Below the pieces are notes generated by a model. The model did no database searches. It was given only the letters and a program-made list of their open reading frames with translations, and was not told the DNA's origin. From the NCBI GenBank assembly GCA_963662665.2, contig CAXXJS010000050.1, forward strand, positions 32,001 through 96,000: 64,000 nucleotides of DNA. Direction: 5' to 3'. This document shows positions 23,744-49,393 of this stretch, in pieces; position 1 is the stretch's first letter; every line of letters begins with the position of its first letter. The position numbers and the translations under genes were made by a program. This stretch comes from Candidatus Latescibacterota bacterium. Its GTDB lineage: Bacteria; Latescibacterota; UBA2968; GCA-2709665.

Positions 23744-24478
23744 ATGTCACACGTGAGTGACAGAATGAATCTATTGCGAAAATGCGGAGCGGAATTCCTG
23801 GGCGCGTTCGCCATCGTGCTGGGCGGTTGCGGCGCCGTTGCCGTCAACCAGATCAGCGGCGGGGCAGTCTCTCACGTGGGTATTGCCACGTCGTTCGGGC
23901 TCATTGTGATGACGATGGTTTACGCCACCGGCCACATCTCCGGGGCGCACTTCAATCCCGCCGTTACGATCGCCTTCTCCTTTACGCGACACTTTCCCAA
24001 ACGGGAGATCGCGCCGTACATTGCCGCCCAATGCATGGGCGCCGTCCTGGCCAGCTGCATCCACCTCGTCACCCTGTCTCCCGTCCTGAATGCCAGCCTT
24101 CCCGGACAGGAACTCGATCTGGGTGTCACCCAGCCTCTGGACGGCGCGTGGACCACGGCCTTCGTATGGGAGTTCCTGCTCGCCTTCCTGCTGATGGTTG
24201 TAATTATGGCGGTTGCCACGGACTACCGCGCTACAGGTCAGGCCGCCGGCCTTGCGATCGGCGGCACGATCTGGTTCGAAGCCATGTTCGCCGGCCCCGT
24301 TTGCGGGGCATCCATGAATCCCGCTCGCAGCCTGGGCCCGGCCCTTGTTTCCGGCAACTGGCTGCATTTTTCAGCCTATGCGGCGGGTCCTGTGCTTGGC
24401 GCGTTTGCCGGCGCGCTTTACTACGAATTTATCAGGTGCCATCGGGACGGGGGGGCGGAAGTCAAGGGCTGCTGCTAA
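23744..24478 (+). CDS. MIP family channel (aquaporin/aquaglyceroporin, NIP-like)
   Basis: ISGAHFNPAVT and GASMNPARS motifs, six TM helices; ends in GCC. Confidence 0.93.
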   Translation: MSHVSDRMNLLRKCGAEFLGAFAIVLGGCGAVAVNQISGGAVSHVGIATSFGLIVMTMVYATGHISGAHFNPAVTIAFSFTRHFPKREIAPYIAAQCMGAVLASCIHLVTLSPVLNASLPGQELDLGVTQPLDGAWTTAFVWEFLLAFLLMVVIMAVATDYRATGQAAGLAIGGTIWFEAMFAGPVCGASMNPARSLGPALVSGNWLHFSAYAAGPVLGAFAGALYYEFIRCHRDGGAEVKGCC

Positions 24479-25425
24479 CCTTGATTCGCAAGTGCGCCGT
24501 GAAAAGGCGCGGAACTTCAGTGGGTGAGAGTCCCACCCGACAGATGTTGCCACAGTCGGAAGCAATCGGAGCGGAGACGTAGGTAACGACATCTCCGAAG
24601 CCTCCGGTGTAGAGGGTCGCCAGGCGACTCGGCGAGTATGTGGGCTGAAACGTGAGTAAACGCTGAGCAGGCCTCGAAAAGGGTAATGCGGGAGCCGACC
24701 CGGCTTGCGAACGGGGAAGGCCGCCGTCGTTGGGGAAGCAGGCAACGAGAGCACCCAACGGTCCCGCCGGGGTAATGGCGGAGGCACGCATACAAGGAGA
24801 TCCGACGCAACACGGGAAGCCCCAGCGGTGGTGGAGAGCCACCAACCGGAAGCCCGTGAGGGCCAGGCCGGGCCGTATGGGGTGGCGGACAGGCTCGTAG
24901 TACCTGTGATGCCGGGTAACGCCGGCGGAGGAAAGGGGCCTGACTTCGGATGTGCTTGTGAAGGGGACAACTGTCGGGAGAGTGGCGCAAGCCTATAACC
25001 TCCTCCAGAATAAGACGAGGCGACTCCAGATCAAGCTAAGGTTTCAGGTGAAGCTGTCCGGGCAGATCGGGCAGTGTGTACCTGAAGGCGATGTCCGTCG
25101 GAGAGCCGGATGCGGTAACTCCGCACGTCCGGTTCGACGAGCGGGATGTGGAAACGGAGCAGGGAGGGGCTATTGAGGCACCGCCAGACGAAAGGGGCGG
25201 GAACAGACAGGCCACTCCTAAACCACCGCGCCACATCTCGACTCTACTTCTTCGGGGAAGTAAAACCGAATATTTGCAAGTAGATAAAGGCGATTTAACT
25301 TCTGATTACCAGGATACACCAGGTCACTGGACGTGGACTGAAAAAACGTCCTTTTTGACGACCGTTACGGCCAGCTTCAAGGGTTTTCGTCGCGTTGCCG
25401 AGTTGCTGTTTTTTTCACATTGAGG
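24479..25425. mobile_element. MITE-A copy 1 (191 bp without the intron), interrupted by a group II intron
   Basis: CTAA direct repeats at 24475-24478 and 25426-25429; 13 + 178 = 191 bp, colinear with 49203-49393; imperfect 13-bp TIRs CCTTGATTCGCAA / revcomp CCTCAATGTGAAA. Confidence 0.85.
24492..25247 (+). ncRNA. ORF-less group II intron (756 nt)
   Basis: 5' GTGCG; domain V GAGCCGGATGCGGTAACTCCGCACGTCCGGTTC (25103-25135, AGC triad, GNRA loop); domain VI ending CTCGACTCTAC; EBS1 TTGCGAA (24705-24711) pairs with exon TTCGCAA; boundaries confirmed by the empty-site copy. Confidence 0.93.
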
Positions 25426-25457
25426 CTAATGCCTGCCTGTGCGTCACTCGATCCTGA

Positions 25458-25616
25458 CAGCCCGTTGAAAAAGTCCATCCGGTCTGCGTCCGGCCCTTGC
25501 GGCCGAATGACTGAGTTGCGCCCCCTCCCCGAATCCCCGATTCGACGCGGTCGCGCGCCTTGTCTTCGGCCACAATGACTCGGCCTCGCCTGCAGAGCGA
25601 CTCTTTCAACGGACTG
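25458..25616. mobile_element. MITE-B, 159 bp, with IS5/IS1182-like 18-bp TIRs
   Basis: CAGCCCGTTGAAAAAGTC ... GACTCTTTCAACGGACTG (16/18 match); flanks CTGA / CTAA. Confidence 0.7.
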
Positions 25617-25713
25617 CTAAGTGAAACCTGCCGGCAAACCCACTTTTCGCCCCGGAACCCGTCCTTTGAAAGCGCAGCCTGCCGTAGTCTGCCTCTCTTT
25701 GCTGTGCGCCGGT

Positions 25714-26550
25714 TTATATCACCAGCGCGACCGCCAGAATGGCCAGCGCCACCCCGGCCGCGGCGACCCGATTGAGGCGTTCCTTCCAGAAGAAATGGGC
25801 GGACAGGTTGTCGAGCAGGATCACACTGCAACCCGTTGCAGGAAAAAAGAGAGTGCCCGGCAGCCGACTGAGGGCAGTCAAAATGACGGACAGCGCCAGG
25901 GCGTTGTACGTGCCCAGGCCGATACCCGTTGCGAGTTCGTGCCGCCGGGGGCAACGCATTTTTCCCGCAACGAAGATATAGCCAATGGTACCCGCGGTGG
26001 CGCCCATTACCACCAGGACCTGGATGAATTCCCCGTCGAGTCCGGCATAGTGGACCGAACGCAGGCAGGAGTGACTCAGTCCCTGCGCAAGAAAAACCGC
26101 GAACAACAGGCCGAAGGTGTTGCCTCCCGTCGCGCGGACACTTCCCCTCGCGCCCGAGGTCATCATCACCAGCGCGGGAAAGGCAAGGATGATTCCACCA
26201 AATTGTGAGAGTACGACCGGTTCCCGCCAGAGCCAGATTCCCAGGGCAACGGGCACCGCAATGGACATGCGAAACGCCGTCAGCACGGCCCCGACCGATG
26301 CGATTTCCAGGACTCGCATCATCAACGACATCGAACCGATGAATACGGCGCCCGTCATCAGGCCGGTTTGCACCGCCGCGGCGGAGAAGGTAAACCGACC
26401 CGTTGACAGGAGATAGACGGAAAGGACAGCGCAGAGCACCAGATAGTTCGTAGAGACGACAACGGGCGCGTAATAGCCGCGTCGCTGGGAGAATTTGCAA
26501 ATCTGGACGAATCCGAAATCGAGTAGAATTGCGAATATCAACCAGGACAC
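25714..26550 (-). CDS. EamA/DMT family transporter
   Basis: About ten hydrophobic helices; 'LWREPV' and 'FFWKERLN' DMT signatures; GTG start inferred. Confidence 0.8.
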   Translation of the reverse strand: MSWLIFAILLDFGFVQICKFSQRRGYYAPVVVSTNYLVLCAVLSVYLLSTGRFTFSAAAVQTGLMTGAVFIGSMSLMMRVLEIASVGAVLTAFRMSIAVPVALGIWLWREPVVLSQFGGIILAFPALVMMTSGARGSVRATGGNTFGLLFAVFLAQGLSHSCLRSVHYAGLDGEFIQVLVVMGATAGTIGYIFVAGKMRCPRRHELATGIGLGTYNALALSVILTALSRLPGTLFFPATGCSVILLDNLSAHFFWKERLNRVAAAGVALAILAVALVI

Positions 26551-31915: not shown

Positions 31916-33112
31916 TCACGACTGACGCTCCGACAATGCAGCTACGCCCGGCAGCTCTTTGCCTTCCAGGTATTTCAGGAACGCCCCGCCGCCCGTGGAA
32001 ACATGCCCCAACCGGCCCGCAAGACCGCACGTCGTCAATGCCGCTACCGTTTCTCCGCCGCCGGCCAGTGTATTGACGCCTCGTGACGATGCCTTCGCAA
32101 CGGCGTGCGCCAGCGCCTCCGTGCCGGGGGCAAAAGTCGAAATCTCCGACACGCCCATCGGTCCGTTCCACACCACGCATCCGGCGTTCAGGATCTCCTC
32201 CGAATATTTCGTACGCGTTGCAGGGCCGATATCGAACCCTTCCAGGTCCACTGGCATTCTGTCTCGTGGCACAACCTGCACGGCAGCGCCCTCCCGCGCC
32301 ACGGCCGCAACCACGCAGTCGGTGGGCAAAATCAGCCGAACGCCCGCTGAAGCGGCGCGCTGAAGGAGGATTTCCGCCATGCCCACCCTGTCCGCTTCCA
32401 GAAGGGACCGTCCGATCTCCAATCCCATCGCTTTGAAGAACGTGTACGACATACCCCCGCCAATAAGAAGCGTATCAACGAGGGACAGCAAATGCTGGAT
32501 GACGTCGATTTTCCCCGAGATCTTCTTGCCGCCCATAACCGCAACGAACGGCCTGGCGGGCGCCGACAATGCCTTCTCCAGTGAATCCAGTTCCCGCTGC
32601 ATCAGAAACCCCGCCGCGCAGTCCACGAAGTGGTGGGTGACGCCTTCCGTGGACGCGTGCGCCCGGTGAGCCGTTCCGAAGGCGTCGTTCACGAAGGCCG
32701 AACCCAATTCACAGAGCCGCCGGGCGAATTCAGGATCGTTTGCTTCCTCAGCGGCGTGAAACCTCAGATTTTCAAGCAGCACAACGCCATCGGCGCGTTT
32801 TGCAAGCGCCTCCGCCTCCGGACCTGTACTATCCGGGGCCGCCAGGACTTCGCGACCAATCAATTCGCCCAGGCGTACAGCCACGGGCTTCAGGGAAAGT
32901 TCGGGTATAACGCGTCCTTCGGGCCTTCCGAGGTGCGACATCAGAATCGGAACGCCGCCCCGGTCCAGGATGTATTGGATCGTGGGTACAGCAGCCCGTA
33001 TACGCGTGTCGTCCCCGATCTCGCCGTTCTGATGAAGCGGCACGTTGAAATCCACCCGCACCAGCACCCGCCGACCCTCAAGCTCCAGATCCGTAATTGA
33101 AAGTTTCGCCAT
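31916..33112 (-). CDS. pgk: Phosphoglycerate kinase
   Basis: RVDFNVP, SHLGRP, NDAFGTAHRAHAS, STGGGA. Confidence 0.97.
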   Translation of the reverse strand: MAKLSITDLELEGRRVLVRVDFNVPLHQNGEIGDDTRIRAAVPTIQYILDRGGVPILMSHLGRPEGRVIPELSLKPVAVRLGELIGREVLAAPDSTGPEAEALAKRADGVVLLENLRFHAAEEANDPEFARRLCELGSAFVNDAFGTAHRAHASTEGVTHHFVDCAAGFLMQRELDSLEKALSAPARPFVAVMGGKKISGKIDVIQHLLSLVDTLLIGGGMSYTFFKAMGLEIGRSLLEADRVGMAEILLQRAASAGVRLILPTDCVVAAVAREGAAVQVVPRDRMPVDLEGFDIGPATRTKYSEEILNAGCVVWNGPMGVSEISTFAPGTEALAHAVAKASSRGVNTLAGGGETVAALTTCGLAGRLGHVSTGGGAFLKYLEGKELPGVAALSERQS

Positions 33113-49202: not shown

Positions 49203-49393
49203 CCTTGATTAGTAATTCTTCGGGGAAGTAAAACCGAATATATGCAAGTAGATAAAGGCGATTTGACTTCGGATTACCAGGATACACCAGGTCACTGGAC
49301 GTGAATTGAAAAAACGTCCTTTTTGACGACCGTTACGCCCCGTTTCAGGGGTTTTCGTCGCGTCGCCTTGTTGCTGTTTTTTTCGAATTGGGG
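49203..49393. mobile_element. MITE-A copy 2 (uninterrupted, 191 bp)
   Basis: CTAA at 49199-49202 and 49394-49397; about 91% ungapped identity to copy 1 by manual count; ends CCTTGATTAGTAA / revcomp CCCCAATTCGAAA. Confidence 0.87.

Follow-up and report, generated by a model that had tools for sequence, protein, structure and literature searches.

An ORF-less group II intron found repeatedly at the end of a miniature transposable element in a Latescibacterota genome

Two elements, one nested inside the other, lie immediately downstream from an aquaporin-like gene in a 64,000-nucleotide (nt) stretch of DNA from a Candidatus Latescibacterota bacterium. This stretch, called the window hereafter, comprises positions 32001–96000 of contig C50 in a genome assembly of 4.86 Mb in 66 contigs. 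The outer element is a 191-bp MITE, or miniature inverted-repeat transposable element. The inner element is a 756-nt insert that begins 13 nt inside the MITE and has the characteristics of a group II intron without an open reading frame (ORF). The tetranucleotide CTAA is present on both sides of this composite. When the 13 nt and the 178 nt of MITE sequence that border the insert are joined, the resulting 191 bp are colinear with an intron-free MITE copy located at window positions 49203–49393 (BLASTN, 91% identity over 181 nt). This nested architecture had been proposed in an earlier, sequence-only reading of the window, and it is confirmed by the comparison. The features of the composite and its relatives are listed in Table 1.

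Table 1. Coordinates of the composite, the intron-free MITE copy in the window, and the full-length sister introns. Positions without a contig name refer to the window. EBS, exon-binding site; IBS, intron-binding site; RT, reverse transcriptase.
Feature	Position	Strand	Remark
Left 4-bp target-site duplication, CTAA	24475–24478	+	sequence reading
MITE left terminus (intron 5′ exon), 13 nt, CCTTGATTCGCAA	24479–24491	+	
IBS2, ACCTT	24478–24482	+	takes in the final base of the duplication
IBS1, TTCGCAA	24485–24491	+	
ORF-less group II intron, 756 nt, 5′ GTGCG ... CTAC 3′	24492–25247	+	
Candidate EBS2 loop, AGGGT	24680–24684	+	pairs with exon −14 to −10, one G-U
EBS1, TTGCGAA	24705–24711	+	exact complement of IBS1 TTCGCAA
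Candidate EBS3, A	24775	+	pairs with first 3′-exon base, T
Domain IV remnant	24942–25096	+	in place of the sisters' ∼1.4-kb ORF region
Domain V, starts GAGCCGGAU	25103–25135	+	AGC triad
Extended domain VI	25137–25247	+	large internal insertion
Candidate branch point, bulged A	25241	+	7 nt from 3′ end; read from sequence
MITE body and right terminus (3′ exon), 178 nt	25248–25425	+	
Right 4-bp target-site duplication, CTAA	25426–25429	+	sequence reading
Intron-free MITE copy (49203–49393) with CTAA/CTAA	49199–49397	+	IBS1 variant TTAGTAA, no EBS1 match
Full-length sister intron, 1975 nt	C61:80849–82823		RT-encoding
Full-length sister intron, 1975 nt	C24:8271–10245		RT-encoding
Full-length sister intron, 1975 nt	C16:126157–124183		RT-encoding

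The gene upstream of the composite (23744–24478) belongs to the MIP/aquaporin family (171.9 bits). Its stop codon, TAA (24476–24478), is supplied by the left CTAA duplication, whereas TGA is the stop at this codon position in five of five congeners. The distance between this gene and a conserved downstream block is 58–74 nt in these five congeners, versus ∼1230 nt here. At the orthologous site, all five genomes lack the MITE, the intron, and a second repeat that follows the composite in the window.

MITEs of this family are short, noncoding, and multicopy. Approximately 77 BLASTN hits are found in the genome at 73%–98% identity, and 73 left ends are recognizable. The 4 bp adjoining a MITE agree on the two sides, with CTAA or TTAA as the consensus. 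Matched flanks that depart from this consensus are ttca (three times), taga, tcaa, ccaa, cgaa, and gtaa. Since the two flanks agree even when they are off-consensus, they must be real target-site duplications that reflect a YTAA-like preference. Given these matched flanks and the empty orthologous site, the MITE is a real transposon relic. A 13-bp left terminal inverted repeat had been described in the earlier reading. The intron does sit directly after a 13-nt MITE end, but the inverted repeat itself is short and imperfect, with CCTTGATTCGCAA and the reverse complement CCCCAATTCGAAA agreeing at ∼8–9 of 13 positions. Two MITEs at different loci, one occupied by the intron (C40:258596–258773) and one empty (C10:386190–386013), have identical 178-nt arms, which suggests that the family transposed recently. 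The predicted RNA fold of the MITE is not unusual (z = −0.78). A MITE-borne terminator or promoter that might drive intron expression was also considered, and a consensus scan of 24300–25800 gave 0 of each.

The assignment of the insert to the group II introns, made at first from the letters of the window, agrees with matches to Rfam families. RF02003 (group-II-D1D4-4) matches 24518–24655 with 89.7 bits versus a gathering score of 49. The RF00029 model for domains V and VI is matched over its whole length (1–77) by 25101–25247, and this match, although it scores below the gathering threshold (see below), ends exactly at the proposed 3′ boundary. The intron boundaries, which have the expected GUGYG at the 5′ end and AY at the 3′ end, are identical in eight short and three full-length copies. 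The ribozyme helices, domain V included, are kept in 10 of 10 aligned copies from five species. Neither part of the composite encodes a recognizable protein, as had been stated earlier: for the four longest ORFs within it, Pfam yielded nothing at E ≤ 0.01. No RT is encoded by the 756-nt copies, so they do not qualify as autonomous introns.

The 756-nt intron is present in eight copies in the genome (C50, C40, C11, C10, C8, C37, C28, and C23), which are at least 99.87% identical to the window copy by BLASTN. All eight occupy the same position in the MITE, and the eight loci have unrelated flanks; composites at several loci with different flanks, as the sequence-only reading had anticipated, therefore exist. 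Pairwise comparison of the short introns reveals 0–2 differences in 756 nt (≤0.26%, mean 0.68 differences), with variants located at nt 671 in C37 and C28 and at nt 239 in C23. In contrast, the 178-nt right arms of nine occupied MITEs (the eight with the short intron and one on C61 with a full-length intron) are 3.4%–14% apart, with a mean of 8.9% over 36 pairs. For eight of these nine arms, the nearest or tied-nearest neighbor is an empty MITE. The occupied arm at C40:258596 exhibits 0 differences from the empty copy at C10:386190, and that on C37 has three differences from the empty MITE in the window. The occupied arm on C23, which represents a MITE subfamily distinct from that of the other occupied copies, has three differences from the empty copy at C53:8503. 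The closest pair of occupied MITEs differs at six positions in the 178-nt arm and at 0 in the 756-nt intron, and no pair of occupied MITEs has identical arms. As judged from these comparisons, the intron entered pre-existing MITE copies independently, repeatedly, and recently, which is the signature predicted for retrohoming.

The sites that were entered appear to be defined by base pairing between the intron and the MITE end. EBS1, at intron nt 214–220, complements the 7 nt preceding the insertion at seven of seven positions in six of the eight copies, and the remaining two sites (TTCGCTA) match at six of seven. This pairing was also examined in 30 related loci from eight other genomes, 25 of which could be aligned through the 3′ end and 24 of which could be assessed for EBS1. 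The complementarity between EBS1 and the local 5′ exon is at least 6/7 at 21 of these 24 loci, the misses being L026, L032, and L038. No other segment of the intron varies as much between species as the EBS1 loop, which co-varies with exon positions −7 to −1. Five EBS1/exon pairs from the relatives are CATGGAT/ATCCATG, TGTCAGC/GCTGACA, TGACGA/TCGTCA, TTTCGAA/TTCGAAA, and TGATAGC/GCTATC.

A candidate EBS2 at intron nt 189–193, AGGGT (AAGGT in other copies), can pair with ACCTT at exon positions −14 to −10. The loop varies jointly with exon positions from about −17 to −10 in two lineages, G001-B and G007. This candidate was assigned by eye and is less secure than EBS1. For EBS3, intron nt 284 is the only one of 827 alignment columns in which A, T, and C match a first 3′-exon base (+1) of T, A, and G (10 sequences), a pattern that fits an EBS3–IBS3 pair of the IIB type. 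With these three pairings, the homing site would consist of the 13-nt MITE end, extended upstream by the last base of the target-site duplication and downstream by a single base.

The distribution of the short intron among the 73 MITE left ends follows the match to EBS1. Left ends with TTCGCAA are occupied in six cases and empty in 11, and those with TTCGCTA are occupied in two cases and empty in one. No other variant carries the short intron (0 occupied, 51 empty). For perfect sites compared with all others, the difference in occupancy has p = 0.0018 by Fisher's exact test.

A plausible source of the transposase for the MITE is a single-copy, 1553-bp element of the IS1380 family at C57:49338–50890 (NF033539, 215 bits; cutoff 180). 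This element was located by a search for end pairs combined with a duplication filter; a search for a parent insertion sequence (IS) by size classes of end pairs, made without that filter, found nothing. The element has a 495-codon open frame and CTAA/CTAA duplications, and its ends, CCTTAATTCCGCAA and (reverse complement) CCTCAATGCGAAAA, are near those of the MITE over ∼14 terminal nt. Inward of these nucleotides, no similarity between the element and the MITE was detected. The cognate IS expected in the sequence-only reading thus has a candidate with regard to its ends and duplications, but not with regard to its interior. Members of the IS1380 family have ends that start with CC and generate 4–5-bp duplications. 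The NCBIfam IS1380 model that matches the C57 element also detects a different element of the family, 1.7 kb long (e.g., C40:221448–223166), of which the genome has 15 copies that are about 98% identical; the 479-codon transposase frame (387 bits) is open in every copy. It was rejected as the parent of the MITE, since its ends differ from the MITE ends.

In the sequence-only reading, the 947-bp unit of MITE and intron was envisioned to move as DNA, in the manner of an IStron, with a transposase supplied in trans. If so, such transposition would be the source of the eight copies. Several observations speak for this proposal: The MITE has kept its two ends and the 4-bp duplication on either side of the intron, the eight loci have different flanks, a candidate IS1380-family transposase gene has similar ends, and some MITE copies are identical, such that the family may still be active. 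However, a composite that moved as DNA would have arms as young as its intron, whereas the arms are the older part, even in the closest occupied pair. Moreover, two or more MITE subfamilies are represented among the occupied arms, empty copies are intermingled with them, and the only pair with identical arms consists of one occupied and one empty MITE. The fact that occupancy tracks the match to EBS1 is likewise not predicted by DNA transposition. Young introns are therefore found within old, dispersed MITEs, which argues for independent insertions, and movement of the composite as DNA is very improbable as an explanation for the eight copies. The rule that had been offered along with this proposal, namely that composites at several loci support co-mobility, is misleading here. 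The presence of a nested composite at many loci is no proof of co-mobility; a comparison of the ages of the inner and outer elements decides.

Sister introns that encode an RT, whose existence the sequence-only reading had suggested checking, are present in three copies in the same genome. Their first ∼450 nt and last ∼150 nt are 95%–96% identical to the short form (coordinates for short and full-length introns were taken from BLAST). A family search of the whole genome revealed exactly three group II RT genes, all within these 1975-nt sisters. Each has an open 463-codon frame with no stops, and the protein read from the first Met in the C61 copy (P0001) is 441 amino acids long. P0001 matches TIGR04416 with 354 bits (cutoff 300) and comprises RVT_1 and GIIM domains with nothing after them; an endonuclease domain is absent. 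The solved structures nearest to P0001 are compact RTs without endonuclease, the best being GsI-IIC RT (186 bits). Although these RT relatives are of the IIC type, the ribozyme exceeds the size of class IIC members and possesses EBS2 and EBS3. The short form keeps domains I–III, V, and VI at 95%–96% identity to the sisters, and 155 nt replace the ORF in domain IV. Between this remnant and the ORF of the sisters, the only BLASTN trace is 29 nt around the former start codon. The three sister RTs are the likely trans-acting source for the short intron. One of the full-length introns (C24:7977–10273 for the locus) lies in the interior of a reverse-oriented MITE, whose reverse strand offers a TTCGATT site, and this intron is preceded by the same 13 nt that form the 5′ exon of the C61 copy.

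We consider it highly probable that the ORF-less intron homes into MITE ends and is helped in trans by the RT/maturase of its sisters. Intron RNA would probably be made by read-through from neighboring genes, such as the MIP gene, and would be spliced and assembled into a ribonucleoprotein by the sister-encoded RT/maturase. That this protein could both splice and mobilize the short RNA is suggested by precedent from two earlier reports (PMC2882425; PMC4424553). The ribonucleoprotein would then reverse splice into DNA where EBS2, EBS1, and EBS3 can pair with ACCTT..TTCGCAA followed by T, a sequence that some of the MITE copies carry at their left end. Lacking an endonuclease domain, the RT would have to rely on host replication intermediates for the priming of cDNA synthesis. 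Each of the eight composites would go back to its own recent insertion of the intron into an older MITE. A DDE transposase, plausibly of the IS1380 family, would have spread the MITE earlier and perhaps still does so.

Several of the data weigh against this mechanism. Splicing of the intron is inferred, and no ligated-exon junction was seen in the fragmented contigs of public runs. The RF00029 match reaches 35.7 bits and thus falls short of the gathering score, 40, owing to the large insertion in domain VI. Eleven perfect TTCGCAA sites are empty, which may reflect inefficient or very recent mobility, or mobility that has ceased. A replication-strand bias would be expected for an endonuclease-less RT, but a test for it against GC skew, limited by the draft contigs, gave no signal: The sense strand is G-rich at six of 10 occupied sites (four of eight for the short copies) and at four of the 11 empty perfect sites. 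The replication-dependent priming step is therefore without support here. Domain IV of the ORF-less form has diverged strongly from that of the sisters, such that recognition of the short intron by the sister RT is assumed. Finally, the full-length sisters pair poorly with their own 5′ exons, and EBS1 looks as if it had been exchanged between copies. EBS1 of the C16 copy, AATCGAA, complements TTCGATT, the exon sequence of both C61 and C24, and EBS1 of the latter two, TTTTGGA, pairs with the C16 exon TTCGGAA only through G-U pairs. This exchange may be an artifact of assembly or polishing of near-identical repeats, or it may be real.

No joint that skips 24492–25247 was seen in four public sequencing runs, but their contigs are short and break at repeats, and hence they allow no verdict on splicing or on intron-free alleles. 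One contig spans unique upstream sequence and the first 10 nt of the intron. RNA runs yielded only small shares at 90%–95% likeness and have no bearing on expression or habitat.

The 11 empty perfect sites, the mismatches between EBS1 of the full-length sisters and their own exons, and the lack of RNA evidence could also be explained by a single burst of retrohoming in the past. By this explanation, the intron, the sister RTs, or both are now inactive, and the composites are inert relics. The difference between this scenario and ongoing homing assisted by the sisters is only one of present-day activity. However, the eight copies are near-identical, all three RT frames are open, and the hallmarks of the ribozyme are intact, which points to very recent activity. 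We therefore regard a burst that has already ended as unlikely.

The intron is not confined to one genome. In a sample of 31 genomes, all 14 from the genus have matches, as do two of four other genera of the family, and none were found in 12 genomes of a second family. ORF-less copies of 756–819 nt from five species can be aligned end to end, and the 10 copies compared have a common domain IV remnant. This shared remnant indicates that the ORF was lost once, before the copies diverged to 84%–97% identity. The targets of these relatives vary. The sister genome G001 carries eight intron copies after ...ATCCATG and, in addition, a 761-nt ORF-less intron from this lineage in seven copies (L017–L023), which are located internally in a second MITE-like repeat of ∼150 bp with ends TATTACGGGGAGCA / TGCTCCTGGTAATA. 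These seven introns differ by a mean of 0.2%, versus at least 14% in their 120-nt flanks. In another genome, the MITE end that is occupied in the window is the site of two copies, with TCGTCA as IBS1 and an EBS1 that matches it. In a third species, a 97%-identical copy is located at the right end of the MITE, where the same motif occurs in inverted orientation.

Some ORF-less copies of another sister genome, G009 (L024–L026), contain extra palindromic, GC-rich insertions of 27–33 nt of the GCCTGCCTG...CAGGCAGG type (alignment columns 278–304 and 354–386). These insertions resemble a motif that starts at window position 25431, right after the MITE.

The near-identity of the introns within diverged MITEs could in principle have arisen by concerted evolution. 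An old composite would have been amplified, its arms would have diverged, gene conversion would have homogenized the introns, and the MITEs that are now empty would have lost the intron precisely. Recombination can homogenize identical sequences that are present in many copies, and two shared single-nucleotide variants are spread among the intron copies. However, this scenario needs about 60 precise intron losses, as well as conversion tracts that end exactly at the intron boundaries in all eight copies. It must also accommodate the interspersion of occupied with empty MITEs and the orthologous copies of sister species, which reside in other targets and have a matching EBS1, as retrohoming predicts. 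We judge concerted evolution to be scarcely credible as the cause of the pattern.

A wider interpretation, which we put forward only tentatively, is that the ORF-less intron, rather than being a degenerate one-off, constitutes a long-lived, genus-wide lineage of nonautonomous retroelements that persists by repeatedly reprogramming EBS1, EBS2, and EBS3 onto abundant short repeats. Its targets would then include the left end of the MITE in two species and the right end in a third; in a fourth species, a second MITE family would be targeted in its interior. If this hypothesis is true, the lineage would be a retroelement hyperparasite of DNA-transposon relics, and its persistence would run against the general view of ORF-less bacterial group II introns as rare, immobile, and short-lived. 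For the MITE, insertion of the intron 13 nt from the end may be disabling, or it may rarely allow the intron to hitchhike on DNA movement.

The system most similar to the one described here is that of the TeI3/TeI4 introns of Thermosynechococcus elongatus. According to Mohr, Ghanem & Lambowitz (2010; PMC2882425), ORF-less forms arose there when the domain IV ORF of an ORF-containing relative was lost, and their mobilization in trans was demonstrated experimentally. In the same paper, twintrons with an identical inner and a diverged outer element are used to argue for independent insertions (PMC2882425). The two systems are further alike in that ORF-less copies outnumber ORF-containing copies (17 versus 8 there, 8 versus 3 here), and in that families differ in their EBSs and a conserved site in a different mobile element serves some of them for homing (PMC2882425). 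They differ in their landing pads, which in T. elongatus are an IS element or another intron, whereas here they are the terminal repeat of a MITE and, in a sister species, a second MITE family (PMC2882425). They also differ in the intron-encoded protein, which has DNA-binding (D) and endonuclease (En) domains and belongs to the CL/IIB1 class in T. elongatus as described there, and has no En domain here (PMC2882425). As in T. elongatus, closely related RT-encoding introns are present in the same genome (the three sisters at 95%–96% identity), and a single ORF deletion would be the origin common to the ORF-less copies (10 copies in five species). Unlike in T. elongatus, trans-mobilization here is deduced by analogy, and several species of an uncultured phylum share the ORF-less lineage.

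Other group II introns are known to exploit repeated sequences. RmInt1 homes into ISRm2011-2. In Pseudomonas putida KT2440, two of nine copies of an intron are associated with repetitive extragenic palindromic sequences (PMC1525189). The homing sites of these two introns resemble the MITE end in being multicopy, selectively neutral sequences. Both introns encode their own RT, whereas the proliferating form here is ORF-less and its site is the extreme end of a MITE.

Self-splicing introns have been found in combination with DNA transposons or MITEs before, in IStrons and in the "MITEtron" of Thiomargarita (PMC4853749). IStrons, as presented there, contain a group I intron and an IS200/605 transposase within the unit and move as DNA (PMC4853749). 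In Thiomargarita, a MITE lies inside a group I intron, whereas the case reported here is a group II intron inside a MITE (PMC4853749). Searches of the open-access literature, made in listings and abstracts and in parts of selected papers, turned up no account of group II introns that home into MITEs. We view the present system as a variant of the Thermosynechococcus type of ORF-less intron proliferation, in which the MITE-terminus landing pad, the En-less RT, and the multispecies lineage are the points of difference.

The T. elongatus family is the main exception to the view of ORF-less introns mentioned above, and the present introns would constitute a second, independent natural system beside it, in an uncultured phylum. 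The ORF-less form outnumbers its autonomous relatives, is common to several species, and has changed its target several times. MITEs serve as neutral multicopy targets, and the arrangement illustrates how two classes of nonautonomous elements can stack without harm to the host. The natural EBS/IBS variants provide a ready set for the study of target reprogramming by an endonuclease-less RT.

Two further matches to the intron and one unrelated repeat were noted. A fragment of domain I of a more distant group II intron is located on the minus strand at C5:13735–13948 (L042:2286–2423; RF02003, 67.7 bits); it is 78% identical to the first 214 nt of the intron, and no domain V was found near it. 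A weaker match of 145 nt to the intron lies at C10:148815–148958. The unrelated repeat (∼170 bp, window positions 25455–25625), which follows directly downstream of the composite and is absent from the five congener loci, gives 110 BLASTN hits in total, with ∼40–74 of them at any one position, and it has very high contig depth in public runs.

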